From the UHGV virus genome UHGV-1672225: DNA of 12,773 nt; one strand, written 5' to 3'. How positions within the stretch are numbered: position 1 is the stretch's first letter; each line of letters starts with the position of its first letter. Positions 1,619-11,491 of this stretch are shown here, in pieces. The notes below the pieces were generated by a model. That model was not told where the DNA came from. It did not search any database and saw only the letters and a program-made list of their open reading frames with translations. Position numbers and translations under genes: made by a program. The DNA comes from a virus.

Positions 1619-1631
1619 TGAAATCCTCGTT

Positions 1632-1663
1632 AAAAAAAAGCCCCGCCGAAAAAGGCAGGGCTT
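1632..1663 (-). terminator. Intrinsic terminator (tR'-like) immediately upstream of the holin RBS
   Basis: Minus-strand RNA forms a 10-bp GC-rich stem (one G-U) with a 6-nt loop, followed by a run of U (8 A on the plus strand at 1632-1639). Confidence 0.6.
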
Positions 1664-1995
1664 CATAAAGCAACAAATTACGCGGTAATCGCTTAACGCA
1701 GTTTTACTACGTTAAATGAAACACTACACCCAGTTACCACCTAAAACAAGGTTTCCCCATAAAAAAACCTTCATATCGTGGTTAATCGATCAATAAAAAA
1801 GCAACGTTCAACTTTTTACCAACTGAACATCCCGACCAGGACTTCCATAATATTCGCCGATATTCCACTGCTTAAGTTGAGTAATCTTCTCCAACTTAAC
1901 TCCCACAGAATCCAATTTCTGCCATGTTTTCGGTTGTATGTGCCTCATTACCCGCTCTGAATATCTAAATACTGCTCGTAGCCTCGCTAAATTGC

Positions 1996-3042: not shown

Positions 3043-3663
3043 TTATGCTTCCTTAATACGCTTAAACTCAATTACCCATACCCACGGGTTAGATAGCCAG
3101 TTCTCTTGCCCGTAAATACCGCGCCAGATATCACCAAAGCCAACGCGATAAACAGCTTCCGGCGGTGTAATCTTGTACGTCACCGGAGATGCGCCTTCTG
3201 CTTTAGCATCTGCCTCGCTCATGTCATGCAGCCGCTCCACACGCACGTCGGTAATTTCCAGCAAAATACGCGAAGCCCAGCGCGGCATGTGAATCGACGG
3301 GGTCCAGCCCTCAGCTGGCTTGCTACTATCTGAGTAATCAGCCTTGTAATCACACAGTTCAGAAGCCAGAGAGACACCATCTTTGATTTCCTGAATGACA
3401 TCGTTATCCAGCCAAAAAGCGTTGAATGTTTCACGGACCCATATGCGATCACCAACGTTACCGAACGGGCATAAACCATGTTCCAGTGCATCCATAACGT
3501 GGGTATAGACACCATTGCGTTTCTTTGTCGGTTTACGGATAACCAGGCAGTTATCGGCCCTGACATTTTTTACAGGTCGGCGAGTCTGCGTCTTCCTGCC
3601 TTCGAGGATGGCCCTGACCATCGCATCATTAAAAATCATGCCGCGCTCTTTCATCTTGCTCAC
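3043..3663 (-). CDS. ASCH (PUA-like) domain protein
   Basis: N-terminal MIFNDAMVRAILEGRKTQTRR and C-terminal VWVIEFK match the recalled YqfB/ASCH signature. Start placed at GTG 3663, which overlaps the upstream stop as GTGA and has GGAGG upstream; an in-frame ATG at 3654 is the alternative. ORF-track ATG at 3726 rejected. Confidence 0.55.
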   Translation of the reverse strand: MSKMKERGMIFNDAMVRAILEGRKTQTRRPVKNVRADNCLVIRKPTKKRNGVYTHVMDALEHGLCPFGNVGDRIWVRETFNAFWLDNDVIQEIKDGVSLASELCDYKADYSDSSKPAEGWTPSIHMPRWASRILLEITDVRVERLHDMSEADAKAEGASPVTYKITPPEAVYRVGFGDIWRGIYGQENWLSNPWVWVIEFKRIKEA

Positions 3664-4303: not shown

Positions 4304-4348
4304 TGTCGAGGCGTCCTTATACATTTGTATAAATATATAATTCTATAT

Positions 4349-4380: not shown

Positions 4381-5448
4381 TCAGGCTTTCAATAGCGATT
4401 CTTTTAGATATCGGGCATCAGCCAGGGCGTTTGGAGTAATCTTGCGAACCCATGCATTACGGGTTGGACTCCACTTAAAGGCGCGTGATTTAAGCAGCGA
4501 ACGAATGTTTGCCTCTGGTTTGCCAGGGAAATAAAACAGGATGCGGTTATCCTCTGGATCTATCTCCATAGAAAAGCCGTCGTATTCTTCGCGCTGTGCT
4601 CCTGTTACAGACTTGACCGATTCAAGCTCCTTAATACGGCTCTGTAGTCGTTTGATTTCGGCGTTATTGTTGCTCAGTGCGTATGAAGGGAATCCGATGC
4701 GCCCACAGAAATCTCCGGCCAGTAACTCTTTGGCTTCGCTTTCTGTAAACCTGAGATCGATTAATGCAGAAAGCTGCTGTATTTGGTCTTTTTTGTATTT
4801 GCGAATGGCCTTATTTGCGGCCTTCATTTTGACGTGTGACTTCATGCAGCCTTGCAGCTTACGAAGCAACTTAAATAGCGCATCAGGATCATCAGACGAA
4901 ATTCCATTACGACCAACACCTGCGGCTTTGCTCTCGTAGTGTGATGCTTTACTTTCGCATTCAACAAACGCTTTTCTGAATAACGCATCAGCTTTAGACA
5001 AACGGCGGCGATGGCCTTTCGCGCTATAATGGTCAACTAAAATCGGCTGGCCTAACGGGATCACATCCAACAGGTCATGCGCTCGCTTATGCGCTACCGC
5101 ACCTTCTTTTCTGGCTTTTTCTGCACGAGCAATATATCGGGCAAGACGCGCGTTCTGGCGTTCCTGATAGGTGTTTACGTAATCATCTCCGCGCTGCTGC
5201 TGTTCAAGCCATGCTTTGCGCAGATCTTCTGTTACGTCCACCAGCTCCGCAGGGATACAACCAGTTTGGGCTTCATAAGAGTAACCATCCTCATAGATAC
5301 GCCCATCGTCTTCAACAAAGAAAAAGGTTTCGTGCTCATCGCTTTTGACCATACGACCATTAACATGGCGTAATAGGTAGCCAGTATCAGTGCTTAACAG
5401 GCTGTTAGGGTTGTTGATCCAGTCAGAAATAATTACTTGTTTATTCAT
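4381..5448 (-). CDS. DUF3560-like protein (355 aa), function unknown
   Basis: Start at ATG 5448 (GGAGA 7 nt upstream) rather than 5529. Central GQPILVDHYSAKGHRRRL resembles the recalled DUF3560 motif; long K/E-rich helical middle region. Confidence 0.45.
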   Translation of the reverse strand: MNKQVIISDWINNPNSLLSTDTGYLLRHVNGRMVKSDEHETFFFVEDDGRIYEDGYSYEAQTGCIPAELVDVTEDLRKAWLEQQQRGDDYVNTYQERQNARLARYIARAEKARKEGAVAHKRAHDLLDVIPLGQPILVDHYSAKGHRRRLSKADALFRKAFVECESKASHYESKAAGVGRNGISSDDPDALFKLLRKLQGCMKSHVKMKAANKAIRKYKKDQIQQLSALIDLRFTESEAKELLAGDFCGRIGFPSYALSNNNAEIKRLQSRIKELESVKSVTGAQREEYDGFSMEIDPEDNRILFYFPGKPEANIRSLLKSRAFKWSPTRNAWVRKITPNALADARYLKESLLKA

Positions 5449-5616
5449 CAGATTTCTCCGGTTTAACCAGGGCGGGTATCGCTCGGTTTCGGGTATAACA
5501 TAGGAAATTTTTTCCCACCTGTAAAGCACTTTTTATATAAATCTATAATTATATATTTATAGATTTTCGATGTTCCCGATGTCTACACACCATCAAAACA
5601 GCTCAAAATGACACTT

Positions 5617-5994
5617 TTACTCTCTTCGCTTTTTCAAATAGTCGACAACATACGCCCTGGCTTTTGCCAGCTTCCGGCGATACTGTCTGAGGCTAAGAGA
5701 AAGGGCGTGGGCTTTATCAATATGCGGTGCATTTATGTCGAGGCCCCGAATCTCCCACGCCCCGTATTCAATTCGGACAACCAGCGCCGCAGTCTCATCA
5801 ACTACCGTGAGGGCCGTCACCGCTCCCTCTATACTGGTTTCCAGTGAGTCATTTGGTGCGCCGCCCCCTCCGGTAAACTGGCAGCGCGTAACCATCATCA
5901 TTTCTAACATCGACGCGAAACCGCTACGGGCGTTGCAGCCATTGCGCACCCACAGCGCCCATAGCTCAAACAAGCTATCCAGATCGCGTCTCAC
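5617..5994 (-). CDS. Candidate Q-like antiterminator (Phage_antitermQ-type), GTG start
   Basis: 125 aa; N-terminal LFELWALW and C-terminal basic helix loosely resemble the small Q-like antiterminator family; sits at the end of the nin-like block. Weak call. Confidence 0.35.
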   Translation of the reverse strand: MRRDLDSLFELWALWVRNGCNARSGFASMLEMMMVTRCQFTGGGGAPNDSLETSIEGAVTALTVVDETAALVVRIEYGAWEIRGLDINAPHIDKAHALSLSLRQYRRKLAKARAYVVDYLKKRRE

Positions 5995-5997
5995 TGT

Positions 5998-6330
5998 TCA
6001 GATCTCCCGTATCGTGACGGGATAAAGCGCCTCTACCTGCTTTTTCTTCATGATGTAGACGTCTGTTCGCACACCTTTAGTGTCGACACAATCAATCGTC
6101 CCATCGTCATAAAACACCATGAAATCAAGTTTATAAACGACACCACCTGGCAGATGAAAAGGCACCTGCATAAGAAACGTCACAACGCGGCCAGCTTTTC
6201 TCAGTAGCTTCAGTTCGCAGTAGTAATCAGCCTCTTTTTTGCTATCAAAAGCGATATCATCGACAACCGTTTTTTTATTGCCGTATTTGCTTTTCCTTGT
6301 CGCTGGTTTGCGAAAGCCGGTATATCTCAT
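5998..6330 (-). CDS. DUF1064 family phage protein
   Basis: YGNKKTVVDDIAFDSKKEADYY matches the recalled DUF1064 signature; ATGA-coupled to the upstream Ref-like gene. Confidence 0.55.
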   Translation of the reverse strand: MRYTGFRKPATRKSKYGNKKTVVDDIAFDSKKEADYYCELKLLRKAGRVVTFLMQVPFHLPGGVVYKLDFMVFYDDGTIDCVDTKGVRTDVYIMKKKQVEALYPVTIREI

Positions 6331-6731
6331 TTGGTATCCCCTGGTACTTCACCAAGACTAAGATCAAACCCAATTTCGTCTTTAACTGACTGCGGCAACA
6401 GCTCCCACGTCTGCGCACACAAAAATTCATCTGTGCCATAACGCTCAACAAAGCGAGCACAATTACTCAGGGGAGGGTGACGAACGGCAATATGCGGAGG
6501 CACACGCCCACCACCAGGCACAACACCGCGATGATGTGGTGCGCACAACCCAAAGCTATGGAAGTGGCAATTCTCATCAACGCTGCCGTAATCAGGATCG
6601 TGATGTAGCTCCGTCCACAGCTCTGGATTCTCAATTTCACGGCCATCAATAATGCAAGCTATGCAACCCACGTGAGTGAGCACCGCTTGTATATAAAGTT
6701 TCTCTTTCTTCGTTGGTGTACGTCCGTTCAT
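6327..6731 (-). CDS. Ref-like recombination-enhancement HNH-type nuclease
   Basis: MNGRTPTKKEK...VGCIACII...HHDPDYG...GLCAPHHRG shows Cys/His spacing resembling the recalled P1 Ref-family/HNH pattern. Confidence 0.45.
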   Translation of the reverse strand: MNGRTPTKKEKLYIQAVLTHVGCIACIIDGREIENPELWTELHHDPDYGSVDENCHFHSFGLCAPHHRGVVPGGGRVPPHIAVRHPPLSNCARFVERYGTDEFLCAQTWELLPQSVKDEIGFDLSLGEVPGDTK

Positions 6732-6964
6732 CAGCGCCCCTTACCATTGATAAAGAGGTTGAACTCGTTGATTAACTGGACATACATGCTTCTGGCCGCG
6801 TAGTTCTTTGCCAGCTCTTTACGGGATGAGATCCCGCAAAACTCACGCAGAATCACAGAGGCCTCAGAACTGTTTGAAACGTTCTTCCCTGTTTTACTGG
6901 TCAGAAAGCGCCAGAATTGGGGATTCTGGCAATGCATCGCAGCACCGCGAACATAACTACTCAT
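6731..6964 (-). CDS. Hypothetical protein (77 aa)
   Basis: ORF overlapping both neighbours' start/stop codons (ATGA at 6961-6964; TGATG at 6729-6733). Confidence 0.4.
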   Translation of the reverse strand: MSSYVRGAAMHCQNPQFWRFLTSKTGKNVSNSSEASVILREFCGISSRKELAKNYAARSMYVQLINEFNLFINGKGR

Positions 6965-7476
6965 TGATGGCCCCCGTCATTTCTGGTGCTTTTCACCGTG
7001 CGGCTTCTTAAAAACCTGCCATCACGAACAACAGACACTTCTCGTTTACCCAACCTCATTTCACGGCGGTAACATTCAGAAAATGCCTCGTCCGGCATCA
7101 TATAAATGCGACGCTTCGCCTCCGTATCCAGAAGGGAACGGCTTGGGGTTACATATAAGAACGACTCATCAATAGGGACAAAACCACGAGCAAGAATTGC
7201 TGGCAGAATACCAGGAAGAACGCAGAAAACAGCTCCACGATGCAGCAACATCTGGTACTCCATGACCTCCGTAATCCCCGTAACGACTGTTACGGTGTCA
7301 CGTCTGTTACGGCTGGCAACCAGTCGCTGCACACCTCCAATTTTCTGCTCTACAGATAGACGTTTGCTATCGTTATCAATATGATCGATAACAAATCCTT
7401 TAATCGTTTGATCAAGGTAGTGCACCACCTGCGATTGAATCTGGTGATTATCACCAAAGAAGGCCAGAATCATCAT
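6961..7476 (-). CDS. Hypothetical early protein (171 aa)
   Basis: ORF ATGA-coupled to the upstream Cro-like gene; no family recognised. Confidence 0.45.
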   Translation of the reverse strand: MMILAFFGDNHQIQSQVVHYLDQTIKGFVIDHIDNDSKRLSVEQKIGGVQRLVASRNRRDTVTVVTGITEVMEYQMLLHRGAVFCVLPGILPAILARGFVPIDESFLYVTPSRSLLDTEAKRRIYMMPDEAFSECYRREMRLGKREVSVVRDGRFLRSRTVKSTRNDGGHQ

Positions 7477-7967
7477 TCCTCAAGCCTCCCAAGTGCTGAA
7501 CGCCGGGCGTTGCTAATCTCCTTATGAATCAGCTCGATATCGCTGGAATCTTTATTCTTAAGCTCCAGCACGGTAATCGCATCACGAACCTCTGAAACGG
7601 TTACGTGTGAGTGTTTCCAGCGAGCAATGAATCGCGGACCGCGTAGATTGCAACGCTCCGCAGGCATCCCCAGCTCAGAGAAAACCGCTTTCAGCCTTGA
7701 TAAGCAGTTAACAGGGAGATTCCCTTTGATCTTGTTCTGCCGAACCGATGTGCCATCGCTACGCTGGCGCTGACGTTCGGCAAAATCTGCCGCCCATTGC
7801 TGGACGTTAATCCGGCCTTCCGAATACGCCACCAGCAGCGTCAGGTTATCCGCACGAGGGAATCTCTCGAAGCGATACCAGGCACCAATCAGTGATGACG
7901 TAAAGCCAAACTTTCTGGCAACACCAATTTGGCCTCCATTTTCGTCAACCCACTCCTGAAAGGTCAT
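7473..7967 (-). CDS. Cro-like HTH early regulator with C-terminal extension
   Basis: Divergent from the CI-like gene; helix-turn-helix-like segment GGQIGVARKFGFTSSLIGAWYR near the N-terminus; GGAG RBS; sigma70-like promoter and operators immediately upstream. Confidence 0.45.
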   Translation of the reverse strand: MTFQEWVDENGGQIGVARKFGFTSSLIGAWYRFERFPRADNLTLLVAYSEGRINVQQWAADFAERQRQRSDGTSVRQNKIKGNLPVNCLSRLKAVFSELGMPAERCNLRGPRFIARWKHSHVTVSEVRDAITVLELKNKDSSDIELIHKEISNARRSALGRLEE

Positions 7968-7986
7968 TTAACGAACTCCAGTTAAA

Positions 7987-8022
7987 ACCACGATACGTGG
8001 TATTAAAACCACATATCGTGAG
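7987..8022. promoter_or_regulatory. Two adjacent operator-like palindromes (ACCAC-N5-GTGGT type)
   Basis: ACCACGATACGTGGT at 7987-8001 is a perfect inverted repeat; ACCACATATCGTGAG at 8008-8022 is imperfect. Both are preceded by AAA. Confidence 0.55.
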
Positions 8023-8030
8023 TTTTTCAA
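8002..8030 (-). promoter_or_regulatory. pR-like sigma70 promoter for the leftward early operon
   Basis: On the minus strand TTGAAA (8030-8025), a 17-nt spacer, then TTTAAT (8007-8002); the spacer is operator B and the predicted start lies in operator A. Confidence 0.5.
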
Positions 8031-8089
8031 TGGGCGAAACAAAAAATAACCTTCTATTTGTGGTCCACCTCTCGTCTTACCATGTGAAA

Positions 8090-8104
8090 ACCACTAAATG
8101 TGGT
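8090..8104. promoter_or_regulatory. Operator-like palindrome on the repressor-proximal side
   Basis: ACCACTAAATGTGGT, a perfect 5-bp half-site inverted repeat about 40 bp upstream of the CI-like start. Confidence 0.5.
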
Positions 8105-8141
8105 AATGTATAAATAACCCACCATTCACGATTGATGAGAC

Positions 8142-8798
8142 ATGAAAAGCAACGACGAGAACATCAAGAAAGAAATAGGTCTGCGCATTCAGACTCTACG
8201 GAAACAATCCGGCATGACTGCCGGAGATCTCCAGCAAGTCACTGGAATAGGCTTAAGCACCTTGCAGAACTATGAGGCCGGATTAAGACAACCATCTATA
8301 CCTGCCATCAAGAAAATCGCGCACGCCCTGAAAGCATCAGCGCCTTATATCGCGTGCTTAACAGATAACCCGTTCCCACCCCAGAATACTAACGCTCCTG
8401 TTATTCCTGGGCTTGTAGCTATAAAAAATGACATAGCATCGCACGCCGGAGAAAAGCCAGTGCTGGCGATAGAACAGGAGATTCTACGAAGCAAGAACAT
8501 CAACCCATCGTCTCTGTCAGTTCTCCAGAGCAACGATGAGTTAATGTCACCAACAATATCCCCAGGCTCCCAAGTCCTGATTAATACAGACGATACAGAG
8601 ATTCATGAGGGGATCTATGCCCTTGAAGACAGAAATGGCCTGGTTGTTTTGAGGCACTGTAGAGTCATACCGGGTGACAATGCTGTTATGCTGTCAACCG
8701 AAAGGGATGCTGAAATGAACACTAAGCATCTGAATAACGAGGAATTTAAGCGTTATAAAGTTCTTGGCCGCGTAGTTAGTGTTGTCAACTGGTTATGA
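8142..8798 (+). CDS. CI-like phage repressor (XRE-type HTH plus S24 LexA-like peptidase domain)
   Basis: N-terminal LRIQTLRKQSGMTAGDLQQVTGIGLSTLQNYEAG is HTH-like; the C-terminal 100 aa has an S24-like fold pattern; divergent from the Cro-like gene. Confidence 0.7.
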   Translation: MKSNDENIKKEIGLRIQTLRKQSGMTAGDLQQVTGIGLSTLQNYEAGLRQPSIPAIKKIAHALKASAPYIACLTDNPFPPQNTNAPVIPGLVAIKNDIASHAGEKPVLAIEQEILRSKNINPSSLSVLQSNDELMSPTISPGSQVLINTDDTEIHEGIYALEDRNGLVVLRHCRVIPGDNAVMLSTERDAEMNTKHLNNEEFKRYKVLGRVVSVVNWL

Positions 8799-8822: not shown

Positions 8823-8840
8823 ATTTCTACGCTCAAAAAA

Positions 8841-8855
8841 ACCACATTTTGTGGT
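8841..8855. promoter_or_regulatory. Fourth operator-like palindrome, downstream of the CI-like gene
   Basis: ACCACATTTTGTGGT, same half-sites as the switch-region sites; a TTGACA lies 2 bp downstream at 8857-8862. Confidence 0.5.
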
Positions 8856-8890
8856 TTTGACAACATGTAAAAGTATAAAAGAGGCTACGC

Positions 8891-9269: not shown

Positions 9270-9289
9270 AAGCGGGCTAACGCCCGCTT
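9270..9289 (+). terminator. Intrinsic terminator-like hairpin after the 124-aa gene
   Basis: AAGCGGGC-taac-GCCCGCTT, 8-bp stem, followed by AT-rich sequence. Confidence 0.45.
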
Positions 9290-9290
9290 A

Positions 9291-9392
9291 TATGATTATA
9301 GATTTATATAATTATATAAAACGCTTTTCATCAGCCAAAAAGTTGGTTATGCTTACCTCGTTCTATAAATATAGATTTATAGAATTATATAA
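9291..9392. promoter_or_regulatory. AT-rich arrays with TATA boxes at 8-bp phase upstream of parA (candidate operator or centromere-like site)
   Basis: 9296-9321 TTATAGATTTATATAATTATATAAAA and 9361-9392 TTCTATAAATATAGATTTATAGAATTATATAA; the second also contains the palindrome TCTATA-AA-TATAGA. Confidence 0.4.
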
Positions 9393-9415
9393 CCAAACAC
9401 ATGGAGTCTCGACAA

Positions 9416-10069
9416 ATGACTATCTCTGTAGGTATTTTCAACGGAAAAGGCGGCGTAACAAAATCAACAATTGCCCGTGCTTTAGCAGTTGCTTATGCAA
9501 AGGCTGGCTGGAATGTATGCCTGATCGATATGGATGTGCTTAACGGAACGGTAACGCGTTGGGTACAACGCAGAATGGCCAACAATATCGAACCAGCAAT
9601 CGCGGCGCAGCCGTGCGGCACACCATCACAAGTCCAGAAAATCATCGAATCAGAAGTATACGACCTGGTTATCGTCGATGGCGGTGCCTACGCATCTGAA
9701 TCAGTACCGAAGCTATCTGAATTTCTGGATATGGTTATTTTGCCAACCCGATTCTCTACCGATGACCTGGAAACCACCGTTAACACTGCTCACGGCATCG
9801 TTAAAAAGGGTGTACCAATCAAGAAAATTTGCATGGTGTTTTCCGGCGCGGCTGAAAACGAAGCTGACTATATTGAAGCCCAAGAGTACCTGGCTAATAC
9901 GCCATACTTTGTTGTCGATAAGTACATTCCCCACAAGCCAGCTCTGAGCAAAGCTCAGGATAAGGGCTTAAGCCTCATTGAGTGCTCATACGTTGCGCCA
10001 CGCAAAAAGGCAGACGACGTTATTCAGGGGATTATCAACCAGCTTGAGGCTCTGACTACTGCCGCATAA
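9416..10069 (+). CDS. parA: Small ParA-family (deviant Walker A) ATPase, type Ib partition-like
   Basis: Start at ATG 9416 (GGAG 10 nt upstream) rather than 9401. Deviant Walker A GKGGVTKST, Walker B-like DLVIVDG, about 217 aa. Confidence 0.65.
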   Translation: MTISVGIFNGKGGVTKSTIARALAVAYAKAGWNVCLIDMDVLNGTVTRWVQRRMANNIEPAIAAQPCGTPSQVQKIIESEVYDLVIVDGGAYASESVPKLSEFLDMVILPTRFSTDDLETTVNTAHGIVKKGVPIKKICMVFSGAAENEADYIEAQEYLANTPYFVVDKYIPHKPALSKAQDKGLSLIECSYVAPRKKADDVIQGIINQLEALTTAA

Positions 10070-10100
10070 TATATAATTATAGTTTTATAGATTTATATAA
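10066..10100. promoter_or_regulatory. Third TATA-phased AT-rich array between parA and the RHH gene
   Basis: TATAtaatTATAgtttTATAgattTATAtaag: four TATA boxes at exact 8-bp spacing, overlapping the parA stop. Confidence 0.4.
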
Positions 10101-10112
10101 GAGGGGATACAC

Positions 10113-10361
10113 ATGGCCGCACCATCAAAACCACCAAAGAAGAACAGCAAAGGCGTACCGCCATCGATCGAACAACCGCAGGTTTTCGACCCGACTGAAA
10201 CGCCAACCAGAACCAAATCAGGTGGGGCACAAATGGCGTTTAACGTCGACCCTGAATTTAAACGCGAGTACAAAACGTTCGCCAGCTCAATGGATATGTC
10301 ATTGAAAGAAGTGCTGACAAAGTCTTTTGAGTTACTCAAGGCTCAATACAACCAGAAGTAA
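10113..10361 (+). CDS. Ribbon-helix-helix DNA-binding protein, ParG-like partner of ParA
   Basis: 82 aa; flexible basic N-terminal tail, then MAFNVDPEFKREYKTFASSMDMSLKEVLTKSFELLKAQ with a beta-strand/helix/helix pattern; AAGAGGGGA RBS. Confidence 0.5.
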   Translation: MAAPSKPPKKNSKGVPPSIEQPQVFDPTETPTRTKSGGAQMAFNVDPEFKREYKTFASSMDMSLKEVLTKSFELLKAQYNQK

Positions 10362-10573: not shown

Positions 10574-10590
10574 ATTCAGCCATAAAAAAA

Positions 10591-10606
10591 GGCCCCCGAA
10601 GGGGCC
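10591..10606 (-). terminator. Intrinsic terminator hairpin (minus-strand orientation, possibly bidirectional)
   Basis: GGCCCC-cgaa-GGGGCC preceded on the plus strand by 7 A (a U-run on the minus transcript); no T-run on the plus side. Confidence 0.45.
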
Positions 10607-11132
10607 TAATCGCTACTTGCTGCTAATGTTTATCGTCACATTCAGAGCGTTATCAGTAATCTTCCAACCCTCCCCATGTGGCGTAAACAAAGCCCCAGTA
10701 ACAACGATAAAAATACACATACAGTATTTTTTCATTGTATGGCCCTTACAGGCCGTTTCACGGCATCCCCACCGACGAAAACAACGCGAGAGCAAGCACG
10801 GCTGCTTGTGCTTGCATGTACGGCAACGGAGAATCCTCCCCTAAAGTCGGTGCCCGGGTGCGAATCGGCGGGAAGGTCCACAGGTATTTTACGATTATTT
10901 TAAGATTAGTAATAGGAAAGAAATTAAACGAAAAAACTCGTTTATTTTCACAAAATCAGTAACCTACCCACAATCTGTGAGTTTGCAGGCACAACAAGAA
11001 CCACAATTTTTTGAAGCATAATAGTGGACTATTATTACCTTTTGGGTAAAATTAACTTGCTGCTTGTGCTTGCGTGGTTGTTTATACAACAACGTAATGC
11101 TGAAAGGACCGCGAATCCGATCAGCACGAAAG

Positions 11133-11159: not shown

Positions 11160-11305
11160 GTTTCTGCCTACCAATAAACCCACGCTATGTGGTTGTCTCT
11201 GTTAAAATCCTGCCGTATTGACATGAATGCGCCATTGGTGGACACTTTCCGAGCCGTAGCAAAATCTACGGTCGGGATTGGAACCCCGATAATCATCATG
11301 GCGCA

Positions 11306-11326
11306 TACCGCGTTAGCGGTTTTTTT
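11306..11326 (+). terminator. Second intrinsic terminator in the leader (candidate sRNA 3' end)
   Basis: ACCGC-gtta-GCGGT followed by a 6-T run; a perfect -35 TTGACA lies about 90 nt upstream at 11218-11223. Confidence 0.4.
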
Positions 11327-11491
11327 ATGCGTAAAGCACTGCTACACCCAAATTATGGTGGGGCGTGCGGGGGAGTCGTAAGACTCGCCGGATTCCATGG
11401 TGACCGGTAGTTCCAACCCTGTACGTCTCACCACCCAATGATTGGAACCAGACGGTGGTGAGTATCCTTAACCTTTAAGGGAACTATCACC

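Follow-up and report, generated by a model that had tools for sequence, protein, structure and literature searches.

Introduction

Phage-plasmids are common gene carriers in Enterobacteriaceae, and for most of their groups the passage between replication as a quiet plasmid and replication as an explosive virus is unexplained. In IncFII plasmids of the R1 type, CopB holds a place of its own in the control of the replicon, which in R1 and R100 comprises copB, copA, tap, repA, and oriR. The closest described phages are N15, phiKO2, and PY54; in N15, operators of the repressor CB lie at the promoter of repA, an arrangement shown experimentally. Here we describe the early operon at positions 5617–7967 of a 12,773-nucleotide (nt) stretch of the virus genome UHGV-1672225 (the window, by which the whole of this stretch is meant), which belongs to a phage-plasmid family of E. 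coli and related bacteria. The operon is compared below with its relatives, with the IncFII-type replicon found outside the window, and with the operators of the phage repressor.

Results

Gene content of the early operon

Six open reading frames (ORFs) make up the operon, given here in the order of transcription with lengths in amino acids (aa).

7473–7967, minus strand: 164-aa ORF, the first early gene, with a Cro-type helix-turn-helix (HTH) N-terminal domain and a C-terminal domain
6961–7476, minus strand: 171-aa ORF, modeled with a kinase-like fold without Walker A
6731–6964, minus strand: 77-aa ORF, conserved in the cassette
6327–6731, minus strand: Ref-like RecA-dependent nuclease, 134 aa (PF16786 RecA_dep_nuc, E 1.6e-11; PHROG 2321)
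5998–6330, minus strand: DUF1064 protein, 110 aa (PF06356, E 6.8e-19; PHROG 190, E 9e-38)
5617–5994, minus strand: Q-like protein, 125 aa, GTG start, with a profile–profile match to a Q profile

PHROG 190, the match of the DUF1064 protein, carries the annotation of a Holliday junction resolvase. None of the six proteins matched an initiator, helicase, loader, or primase family in Pfam, PHROGs, or NCBIfam, so that neither an O-type origin-binding initiator nor, beside one, a P- or DnaC-type helicase loader was found among them by these searches. No O/P homologue lies in the same operon, which is flanked upstream by the divergent repressor gene and downstream by the DUF3560 gene, small genes, and the lysis genes. 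The window-wide repeat search gave no iterons or tandem repeat families within 5617–7967, and PADLOC matched no defense system. The 164-, 171-, 77-, and 125-aa proteins reached no curated family of Pfam or NCBIfam at threshold, their PHROG matches being largely to families without an assigned function, and a sequence search against the chains of the PDB returned nothing usable for these four. At the level of protein families, the operon carries no known replication function.

An earlier note, made from the letters of the window, had described a short Cro-to-Q operon without O/P-type genes, and this description is borne out by the six ORFs and by the lack of any initiator or loader family match. 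Neither the 171-aa nor the 77-aa protein, for which the note had proposed family searches, proved to be a known initiator. Its labels Cro-like and Q-like are kept here as tentative ones, in line with the weak sequence matches obtained (PHROG 35, E 2e-3; hhalign probability, 70%). The note had further pointed to start/stop overlaps at nearly every junction, which is the case at four of the five. Read from the minus strand, the first two are of the ATGA type (gaggaATGAtg between the 164- and 171-aa genes and catcaATGAgt between the 171- and 77-aa genes), the third is of the TGATG type (gcgcTGATGaac), and the fourth is again of the ATGA type (ccaaATGAgat), whereas a 3-nt gap separates the DUF1064 gene from the 125-aa gene (atcTGAacaGTG). 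However, overlaps also occur at 18 of the 41 other same-strand junctions of the annotated relative L001 (see below), and they were rejected as a special trait of the operon after this count across the whole of L001. The overlaps are ordinary, and the missing O/P pair is what is expected for a phage-plasmid.

The element and its relatives

The region is 98.9–99.9% identical over its full length to at least 56 plasmid records of 46–50 kb, nearly all from E. coli. At least 63 sequenced plasmids, most of them from E. coli of clinical origin, and three phage isolates carry members of the family at about 99% identity. As the reference we used L001 (NZ_CP099756.1), a complete circular E. coli plasmid of 47,500 base pairs (bp), to which the window aligns at 26967–40142 in five blocks of 95.6–99.5% identity, and which contains a full contractile-tail virion module, terminase, lysis genes, the immunity region, ParA, a toxin–antitoxin pair, and repA. 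Equally close are three genomes that were submitted as phages of Yersinia (vB_YpM_39, 41, and 44), with Yersinia pestis given as the host; in the phage isolate vB_YpM_41 the early operon, ParA, and RepA are all shared, RepA being 98.5% identical and the operator the same. The element is a phage-plasmid.

Many of the plasmid records are typed merely as non-mobilizable plasmids, with most genes annotated as hypothetical, and the operon might on that account be taken for part of a decayed prophage remnant on a plasmid, the replication genes of which have simply been lost. Such a reading is already contradicted by the three deposited phage genomes of the same element and can hardly be upheld: the element is not a decayed remnant, because its early operon, ParA, and RepA recur in a phage isolate. 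It has complete modules for virion, lysis, immunity, and partition, and the gene order is the same across genera.

The plasmids of E. coli and Serratia and the phage are recorded as circular; the Salmonella plasmid (L002) has a linear record that breaks off within a gene. In none of these four kinds of record (E. coli, Serratia, Salmonella, and phage) is there an annotated telomere resolvase. Besides L002 and the Serratia plasmid L003 (NZ_CP074139.1), the relatives L014–L021, fetched via ParA, were compared. Throughout these loci the cassette is conserved together with CI, ParA, and the 82-aa gene at 30–75% protein identity, and IncFII RepA is found in all of them except L015, L020, and L021, which end before the repA position. 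A profile search of genome contigs with a ParA profile yielded unrelated loci only. In the more distant relative L022, which is without the 164/171-aa genes, there are no known replication genes in the corresponding slot, and no RepA was recognized in its 18 kb.

In the Serratia plasmid, the immunity, early, partition, and RepA backbone is kept, but lambda-like non-contractile tail genes replace the contractile-tail module. As judged from these comparisons, the control/replicon backbone and the virion module behave as separate units of exchange. Within the window, the Ead/Ea22-like and ASCH-type genes (2265–2391 and about 3300–3654) are mosaic, with protein identity of 62–78% or breaks of the alignment against otherwise near-identical relatives. 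Two further candidates, pSLy3 (SSU5 supergroup) and vB_YpM_HQ103 (a 32-kb P2-like phage), were set aside as unrelated to the element. A description of this phage-plasmid family was not found in a literature search, which is absence of evidence only.

The IncFII-type replicon outside the window

The only recognizable replication gene in L001 encodes a RepA of the IncFII family (PF02387, E 1.2e-43). It is located at 44208–45185 on the strand opposite to the plus strand of the window, 4.1–5.0 kb past the window's right end and some 10 kb away from where the early operon starts; its true start is probably the ATG at 45056, as annotated in the Salmonella relative. In the relatives whose locus reaches repA, RepA identity is 29–84%. 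No RepL-type family was matched among the proteins scanned, and none is annotated in L001. The earlier note had placed replication elsewhere, in a plasmid-type replicon, and had proposed to search the flanks for a RepA-type initiator, iterons, or a telomere resolvase. Its proposal is supported by the IncFII RepA of L001 beyond the right end of the window and by ParA inside it, the records being circular with no annotated telomere resolvase.

An origin-like region is predicted downstream of repA, where a DnaA box (TTATCCACA), the only perfect copy in the 47.5 kb, is found 141 nt past the repA stop codon beside an AT-rich stretch of 76–80% A+T (AT fraction up to 0.8 at 200–250 nt). The position of the box is kept in L002 and L014, and L016 has a box as well. 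On the strand opposite to the repA leader, a promoter (CTTGCNT-16/17-TATAAT) and a 5′ segment (GGAGTTGTCGAGGC) are conserved, and a terminator hairpin shows compensatory changes at 7 pairs in a set of 8 sequences. On the basis of this conserved promoter and the compensatory hairpin, an antisense RNA of about 90 nt is predicted on the plus strand of L001 (about 45095–45185), as in IncFII copy control. No ORF of CopB size exists upstream of repA, since none longer than 41 aa is found on the repA strand before the next gene. Two tandem promoters are located upstream of repA, the distal one being conserved as TTGAC(G/T), 16 nt, TA..AT. Between the two, a GATC cluster (e.g., GAGATCCAATTTAGATCC) is conserved at about 45290–45330 of L001 and at the equivalent places in relatives, and repA expression may be sensitive to the Dam methylation state.

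Operators and their probable link to repA

The region between the early operon and the repressor gene, and the sites resembling its operators elsewhere in the window, are as follows.

7986–8002, 8007–8023, and 8089–8105: cluster of operators separating the repressor gene from the early operon, AACCAC-N5-GTGGTT palindromes
8030–8025 (TTGAAA), 17 nt, 8007–8002 (TTTAAT), minus strand: promoter-like pair of the early operon, read by eye and overlapping the operators
8142–8798, plus strand: CI-type repressor, 218 aa (HTH_3, PF01381, E 4.5e-11; PHROG 4 repressor, E 1e-26)
8840–8856: perfect operator palindrome AACCACATTTTGTGGTT, downstream of the repressor gene and before the 124-aa gene and parA
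11178–11194: operator-like site ahead of the antirepressor RNAs

The C-terminus of the repressor has a weak S24 peptidase-like match (PF00717, E 1.8e-3) of 18.4 bits, which is below the Pfam cut-off of 23.3 bits. In a pattern search, the operator motif was matched five times in the window against 0.45 expected, and nine times in L001 (with at most two mismatches) against 1.36 expected. Only two copies in L001 are perfect, one just downstream of cI (8840–8856 of the window) and the other at repA (45221–45237). The latter directly follows a conserved extended −10 element (TGGTAGAGT) and lies at about +3 to +19 of the repA promoter.

In relatives with other operator sequences, the repA-proximal site appears to change along with the cI–cro operators. 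In L016, L017, and L019 the operator half-site is ACTAC and the repA site is GACTACAAAACGTAG, which has four matches in the 20.6 kb of L016 against 0.14 expected, three of them in the cI–cro region and one at repA. L018 has the core CAATTTG(G/T)GG and the repA site CCAATTTGTGGTT, with perfect matches to CAATTTGTGGT only in the cI–cro region and at repA, and in the Serratia plasmid the cI–cro region and the repA site share GTGTGGTTTT. Within the 20.6-kb loci, the pattern searches found the respective operator types only in the cI–cro region and at repA. Because the palindrome at the repA promoter covaries with the operators of the relatives, replication is probably coupled to the lysis–lysogeny switch, as is the case for CB and repA of N15. 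By analogy, the phage repressor would stand where CopB stands in R1-type replicons.

The first three early proteins

Residues 1–53 of the 164-aa protein match PHROG 35 (annotated as transcriptional repressor, E 2e-3). Its counterpart in L022 is a protein of 73 aa that matches the first 56 positions of PHROG 35, and because this counterpart stands alone, the 164-aa protein is regarded as a Cro-type domain (about residues 1–70) with an added C-terminal domain. It has 15 homologue clusters only, and its AlphaFold model is poor (predicted local distance difference test, pLDDT, 57) and unfit for a structure search. The 171-aa protein, a member of a tiny family of unknown function, is modeled as a nucleoside/nucleotide-kinase-like α/β fold with FFGD where Walker A would be expected, and its best fold matches are small-molecule kinases, not AAA+ loaders. 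In the E. coli elements this protein ends in a tail of about 25 residues (146–171, pLDDT <50; 6961–7040 of the window) that is missing from its relatives of 147–156 aa. The 77-aa protein matches only PHROG 5358, of unknown function, and has no match in the PDB; its gene occurs in all relatives examined, L022 included.

The 164-aa protein's C-terminal domain and the 171- and 77-aa proteins could together constitute an unrecognized lytic-replication or replication-switch module in the slot held by cII, O, and P in lambda, which might, for example, redirect the host replisome or RepA/oriR to high-rate or concatemer-forming replication. The order and position of this trio are kept in all relatives down to 31–40% identity, even with the virion module replaced, the three families are tiny and without other assignment, and a theta-type plasmid replicon alone does not obviously produce concatemers for packaging. 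The P-loop NTPase-type fold predicted for the 171-aa protein points in the same direction, but Walker A is absent and the small-molecule kinases rather than the AAA+ loaders are its nearest folds. Moreover, no member of the trio is similar to any initiator, loader, helicase, or primase, no iterons were found in the operon by the window-wide search, and L022 is without the 171-aa gene and the fused C-terminal domain, yet retains the 77-aa, DUF1064, and Q-like genes. We consider such a module unlikely. A more specific proposal, that the head of the operon is a novel device replacing O/P by switching the IncFII RepA/oriR from copy-controlled theta replication to high-rate, concatemer-yielding replication, appears slightly less likely still. 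The reading that we favor, an early lytic-switch operon served by a separate IncFII replicon, leaves these conserved and unassigned proteins as defined targets for finding the other needs of such an element.

The Q-like protein and the repeated promoter

The profile of the 125-aa family (29 members) was aligned with a Q profile over 103 columns at an hhalign probability of 70% (E 4e-5). The latter profile consisted of nine sequences collected by tblastn with QuuD, namely QuuD itself, five of the QuuD/Q82 type, and three of the Q21/P22 gp23 type; seven of the nine carry a Q or antiterminator annotation. Against subsets of these sequences, the probability was about 2% for the QuuD type alone and 19.5% for the Q21 type. 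The 125-aa protein did not match PF06530 at the curated threshold, with one of 24 family members reaching E 0.07; NCBIfam PA0613_fam was hit at E 2.5e-4, and the protein reached none of the curated thresholds. The protein is probably a late-gene regulator distantly related to the Q82/Q21 antiterminator family. Two features downstream of its gene bear on its possible action.

5445–5564, minus strand: copy of a repeated promoter and leader (promoter 5525–5497, about 90 bp after the 125-aa stop codon), TTTACA-17-TATGTT, from the promoter scan
1628–1664, minus strand: strong intrinsic terminator (1664–1637) with an 11-bp stem and a T run, just upstream of the holin gene and inside the unit read from the repeated promoter

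The repeated element, of about 110 bp, is present in three copies at 95–96% identity (5445–5555 of the window; 25721–25834 and 41511–41622 of L001). It contains a spacer palindrome (GGGAAAAAATTTCC) between the hexamers and a conserved leader ending in GGAG, and is preceded by an AT-rich array with an 8-bp period (5533–5564). Each copy precedes a gene block: the genes from DUF3560 to lysis, the virion genes, and a 126-aa gene with an HTH gene. The Serratia and Salmonella relatives have their own version in three copies each, which in Serratia shows the same layout with a similar palindrome between −35 and −10. The window copy would drive the DUF3560 gene and the following genes down to the lysis genes, and Q-type read-through might take place at the terminator that precedes the holin gene. 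Both the promoters and the terminator would fit a regulator of the Q type with several identical sites of action, activation being equally possible as antitermination.

The DUF3560 protein (4381–5448) is encoded just downstream of the Q-like gene, by the gene that comes first after the repeated promoter. If this protein were a phage-type primase-like replication protein, the replication function would have been displaced and not be absent. Indeed, its C-terminal 180 residues match PHROG 19458, annotated as primase (E 3.8e-37). However, this label is an annotation and not a tested function, it covers part of the protein only, and no primase, Toprim, or helicase domain of Pfam was found in the protein other than DUF3560 itself; in addition, the Serratia relative and L016–L021 lack the gene but keep the rest of the cassette and, where the locus reaches it, RepA. 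A displaced replication function of this kind is therefore very improbable in our view, and we retain the IncFII RepA as the initiator of the element. The mechanically predicted ORF of the DUF3560 gene begins with GTG at 5529 (382 aa), whereas RefSeq and the PHROG profile start at ATG 5448 (355 aa); the 27 extra codons (5449–5529) overlap the promoter–leader and are very likely not translated.

Partition and antirepressor modules

To the right of the repressor gene, the window contains the following features.

9401/9416–10069, plus strand: ParA (ParA/CbiA Pfam domains)
10113–10361, plus strand: putative centromere-binding protein of 82 aa, downstream of parA
9288–10361, plus strand: partition module overall, with AT-rich arrays of 8-bp period at 9288–9319, 9353–9400, and 10069–10108
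11253–11326, plus strand: isrK-type RNA (Rfam, 70 bits, above the gathering score)
11351–11438, plus strand: C4 antisense RNA (Rfam, 84 bits, above the gathering score)

The partition module may be of the type Ib ParA kind, having ParA domains, a small gene following, and 8-bp-period arrays upstream and in between; the fold of the 82-aa protein, for which no match was found in the PDB, is predicted to be ribbon-helix-helix from its sequence. The array motif is matched 23 times in L001 against 2 expected. In the window, the AT-rich arrays (TTATAGAT / TTATATAA) lie at 4309–4348 and 5533–5564 in addition to the three of the partition module, that is, upstream of parA, in the space separating it from the 82-aa gene, ahead of the repeated promoters, and ahead of a 100-aa gene. 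The repeat unit differs in the Serratia relative (TTAAATAA / ATATTTAA), where it is again common to parA and the three repeated promoters. By analogy with omega of pSM19035, the small partition protein may have a second role in global regulation.

The isrK and C4 RNAs precede a 63-aa ORF and a gene running off the window, which in L001 encodes ORF6N and Rha domains. From these features, 11178–11438 is assigned as a second immunity (antirepressor) module of the P1 immI / N15 immA type. Between the partition genes and this module, a full-length match to the ryfA RNA family is located on the minus strand at 10585–10881 (142 bits against a gathering score of 80), which may be a small toxin-type RNA gene for plasmid maintenance.

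Discussion

The explanation that best accounts for the results as a whole, and that we hold to be probable, is that 5617–7967 is the early lytic-switch operon of a circular phage-plasmid whose replication is performed by a separate IncFII module linked to the switch through the repressor. In the predicted mechanism, the early operon would be transcribed from a promoter overlapping the operators that face the CI-type repressor gene, to give a regulator of the Cro type extended by a further domain, two small proteins, two recombination/DNA-processing nucleases (Ref-like and DUF1064), and the Q-like regulator. Copying would be left to the plasmid module about 10 kb away, with RepA, the predicted CopA-like antisense RNA in its leader, and the origin-like region; because an initiator and a loader are absent and the RepA module is of the plasmid type, the element would rely on the host replisome. 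In the plasmid state, RepA synthesis, and so the copy number, would be held down by the repressor, the loss of which at induction would lead to more replication. The Q-like protein would act at the three identical promoter–leader elements, one of them directly downstream of its own gene, and would carry transcription through the terminator before the lysis genes and into the virion genes.

Several points weigh against this reading. The binding of CI at the operators, its effect on the copy number, and antitermination by the Q-like protein are, as every regulatory step in the scheme, read from the sequence. In drawing up the operator patterns for L016 and L018 the repA site was taken into account, so that these patterns look more specific than they are, and in an unbiased shuffle test with 13-mers, 0.3–10% of the shuffles reached the observed match (p about 0.003–0.1 per element). 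A repressor bound downstream of both repA promoters would also block the basal supply of RepA on which the plasmid state depends, so that repression must be partial. The Rfam CopA family gave no match at the gathering score. The assignment of the Q-like protein depends on the hhalign probability of 70%. Finally, the 164-aa protein's C-terminal domain and the 171- and 77-aa proteins may yet have an unrecognized replication role, the 171-aa protein being modeled with a P-loop-type fold.

This family seems to manage both the plasmid and the viral lifestyle without a phage replication gene, by means of an IncFII replicon in which control of the CopB type has apparently been replaced by the phage repressor. 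If confirmed, this would provide a simple, testable link between an SOS-sensitive switch and plasmid copy number, and would explain the small size of the early operon.

It is worth comparing the element with the known systems. Like lambda (cro-cII-O-P-ren-nin-Q), it has divergent CI and Cro genes with multiple operators, recombination/nuclease genes before Q that recall the nin region, and a Q-type regulator followed immediately by a promoter, with a terminator ahead of the lysis genes. Unlike in lambda, there is no cII, O, or P, and the promoter after Q is present in three copies that stand directly before genes, not before a short terminated RNA. With P1, in which a set of functions is under C1 control, the element shares the circular plasmid prophage, a plasmid RepA with partition genes, the Ref nuclease, scattered repressor operators, and a C4 antisense RNA ahead of an antirepressor-type gene (c4/ant of immI). 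In P1, however, lytic replication has its own replicon, repL, and RepA is of the iteron type; the immunity proteins and virion genes of P1 are unrelated. The IncFII replicons of R1 and R100 resemble that of the element in the PF02387 RepA, the origin-like region downstream, the two tandem promoters, and the antisense RNA predicted in the leader. In contrast to them, the element has no CopB gene but a phage-repressor-type palindrome at the proximal promoter, no match to the CopA family of Rfam, and no conserved leader peptide that could be seen, and the replicon is part of a virus.

The closest likeness is to the primary immunity region immB of the telomere phages N15, phiKO2, and PY54, in which a repressor gene (cB or cI) and a short cro...Q operon diverge from a region with several operators (three palindromes at 7986–8105 here), O and P are missing, a separate repA has operators of the prophage repressor at its promoter, and a second, antirepressor immunity locus is present. 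The element differs from these phages in being circular, with no annotated telomere resolvase, and in having a RepA of the IncFII family instead of the large N15 RepA; four extra genes are inserted between the cro-type and Q-like genes, the Cro-type protein has an extra domain, and one putative operator stands at repA instead of two. Altogether, the locus is a variant of the N15 layout, a compact Cro-to-Q operon combined with an IncFII replicon, in which the apparent capture of that replicon by a phage repressor and the three conserved early proteins are the noteworthy features.

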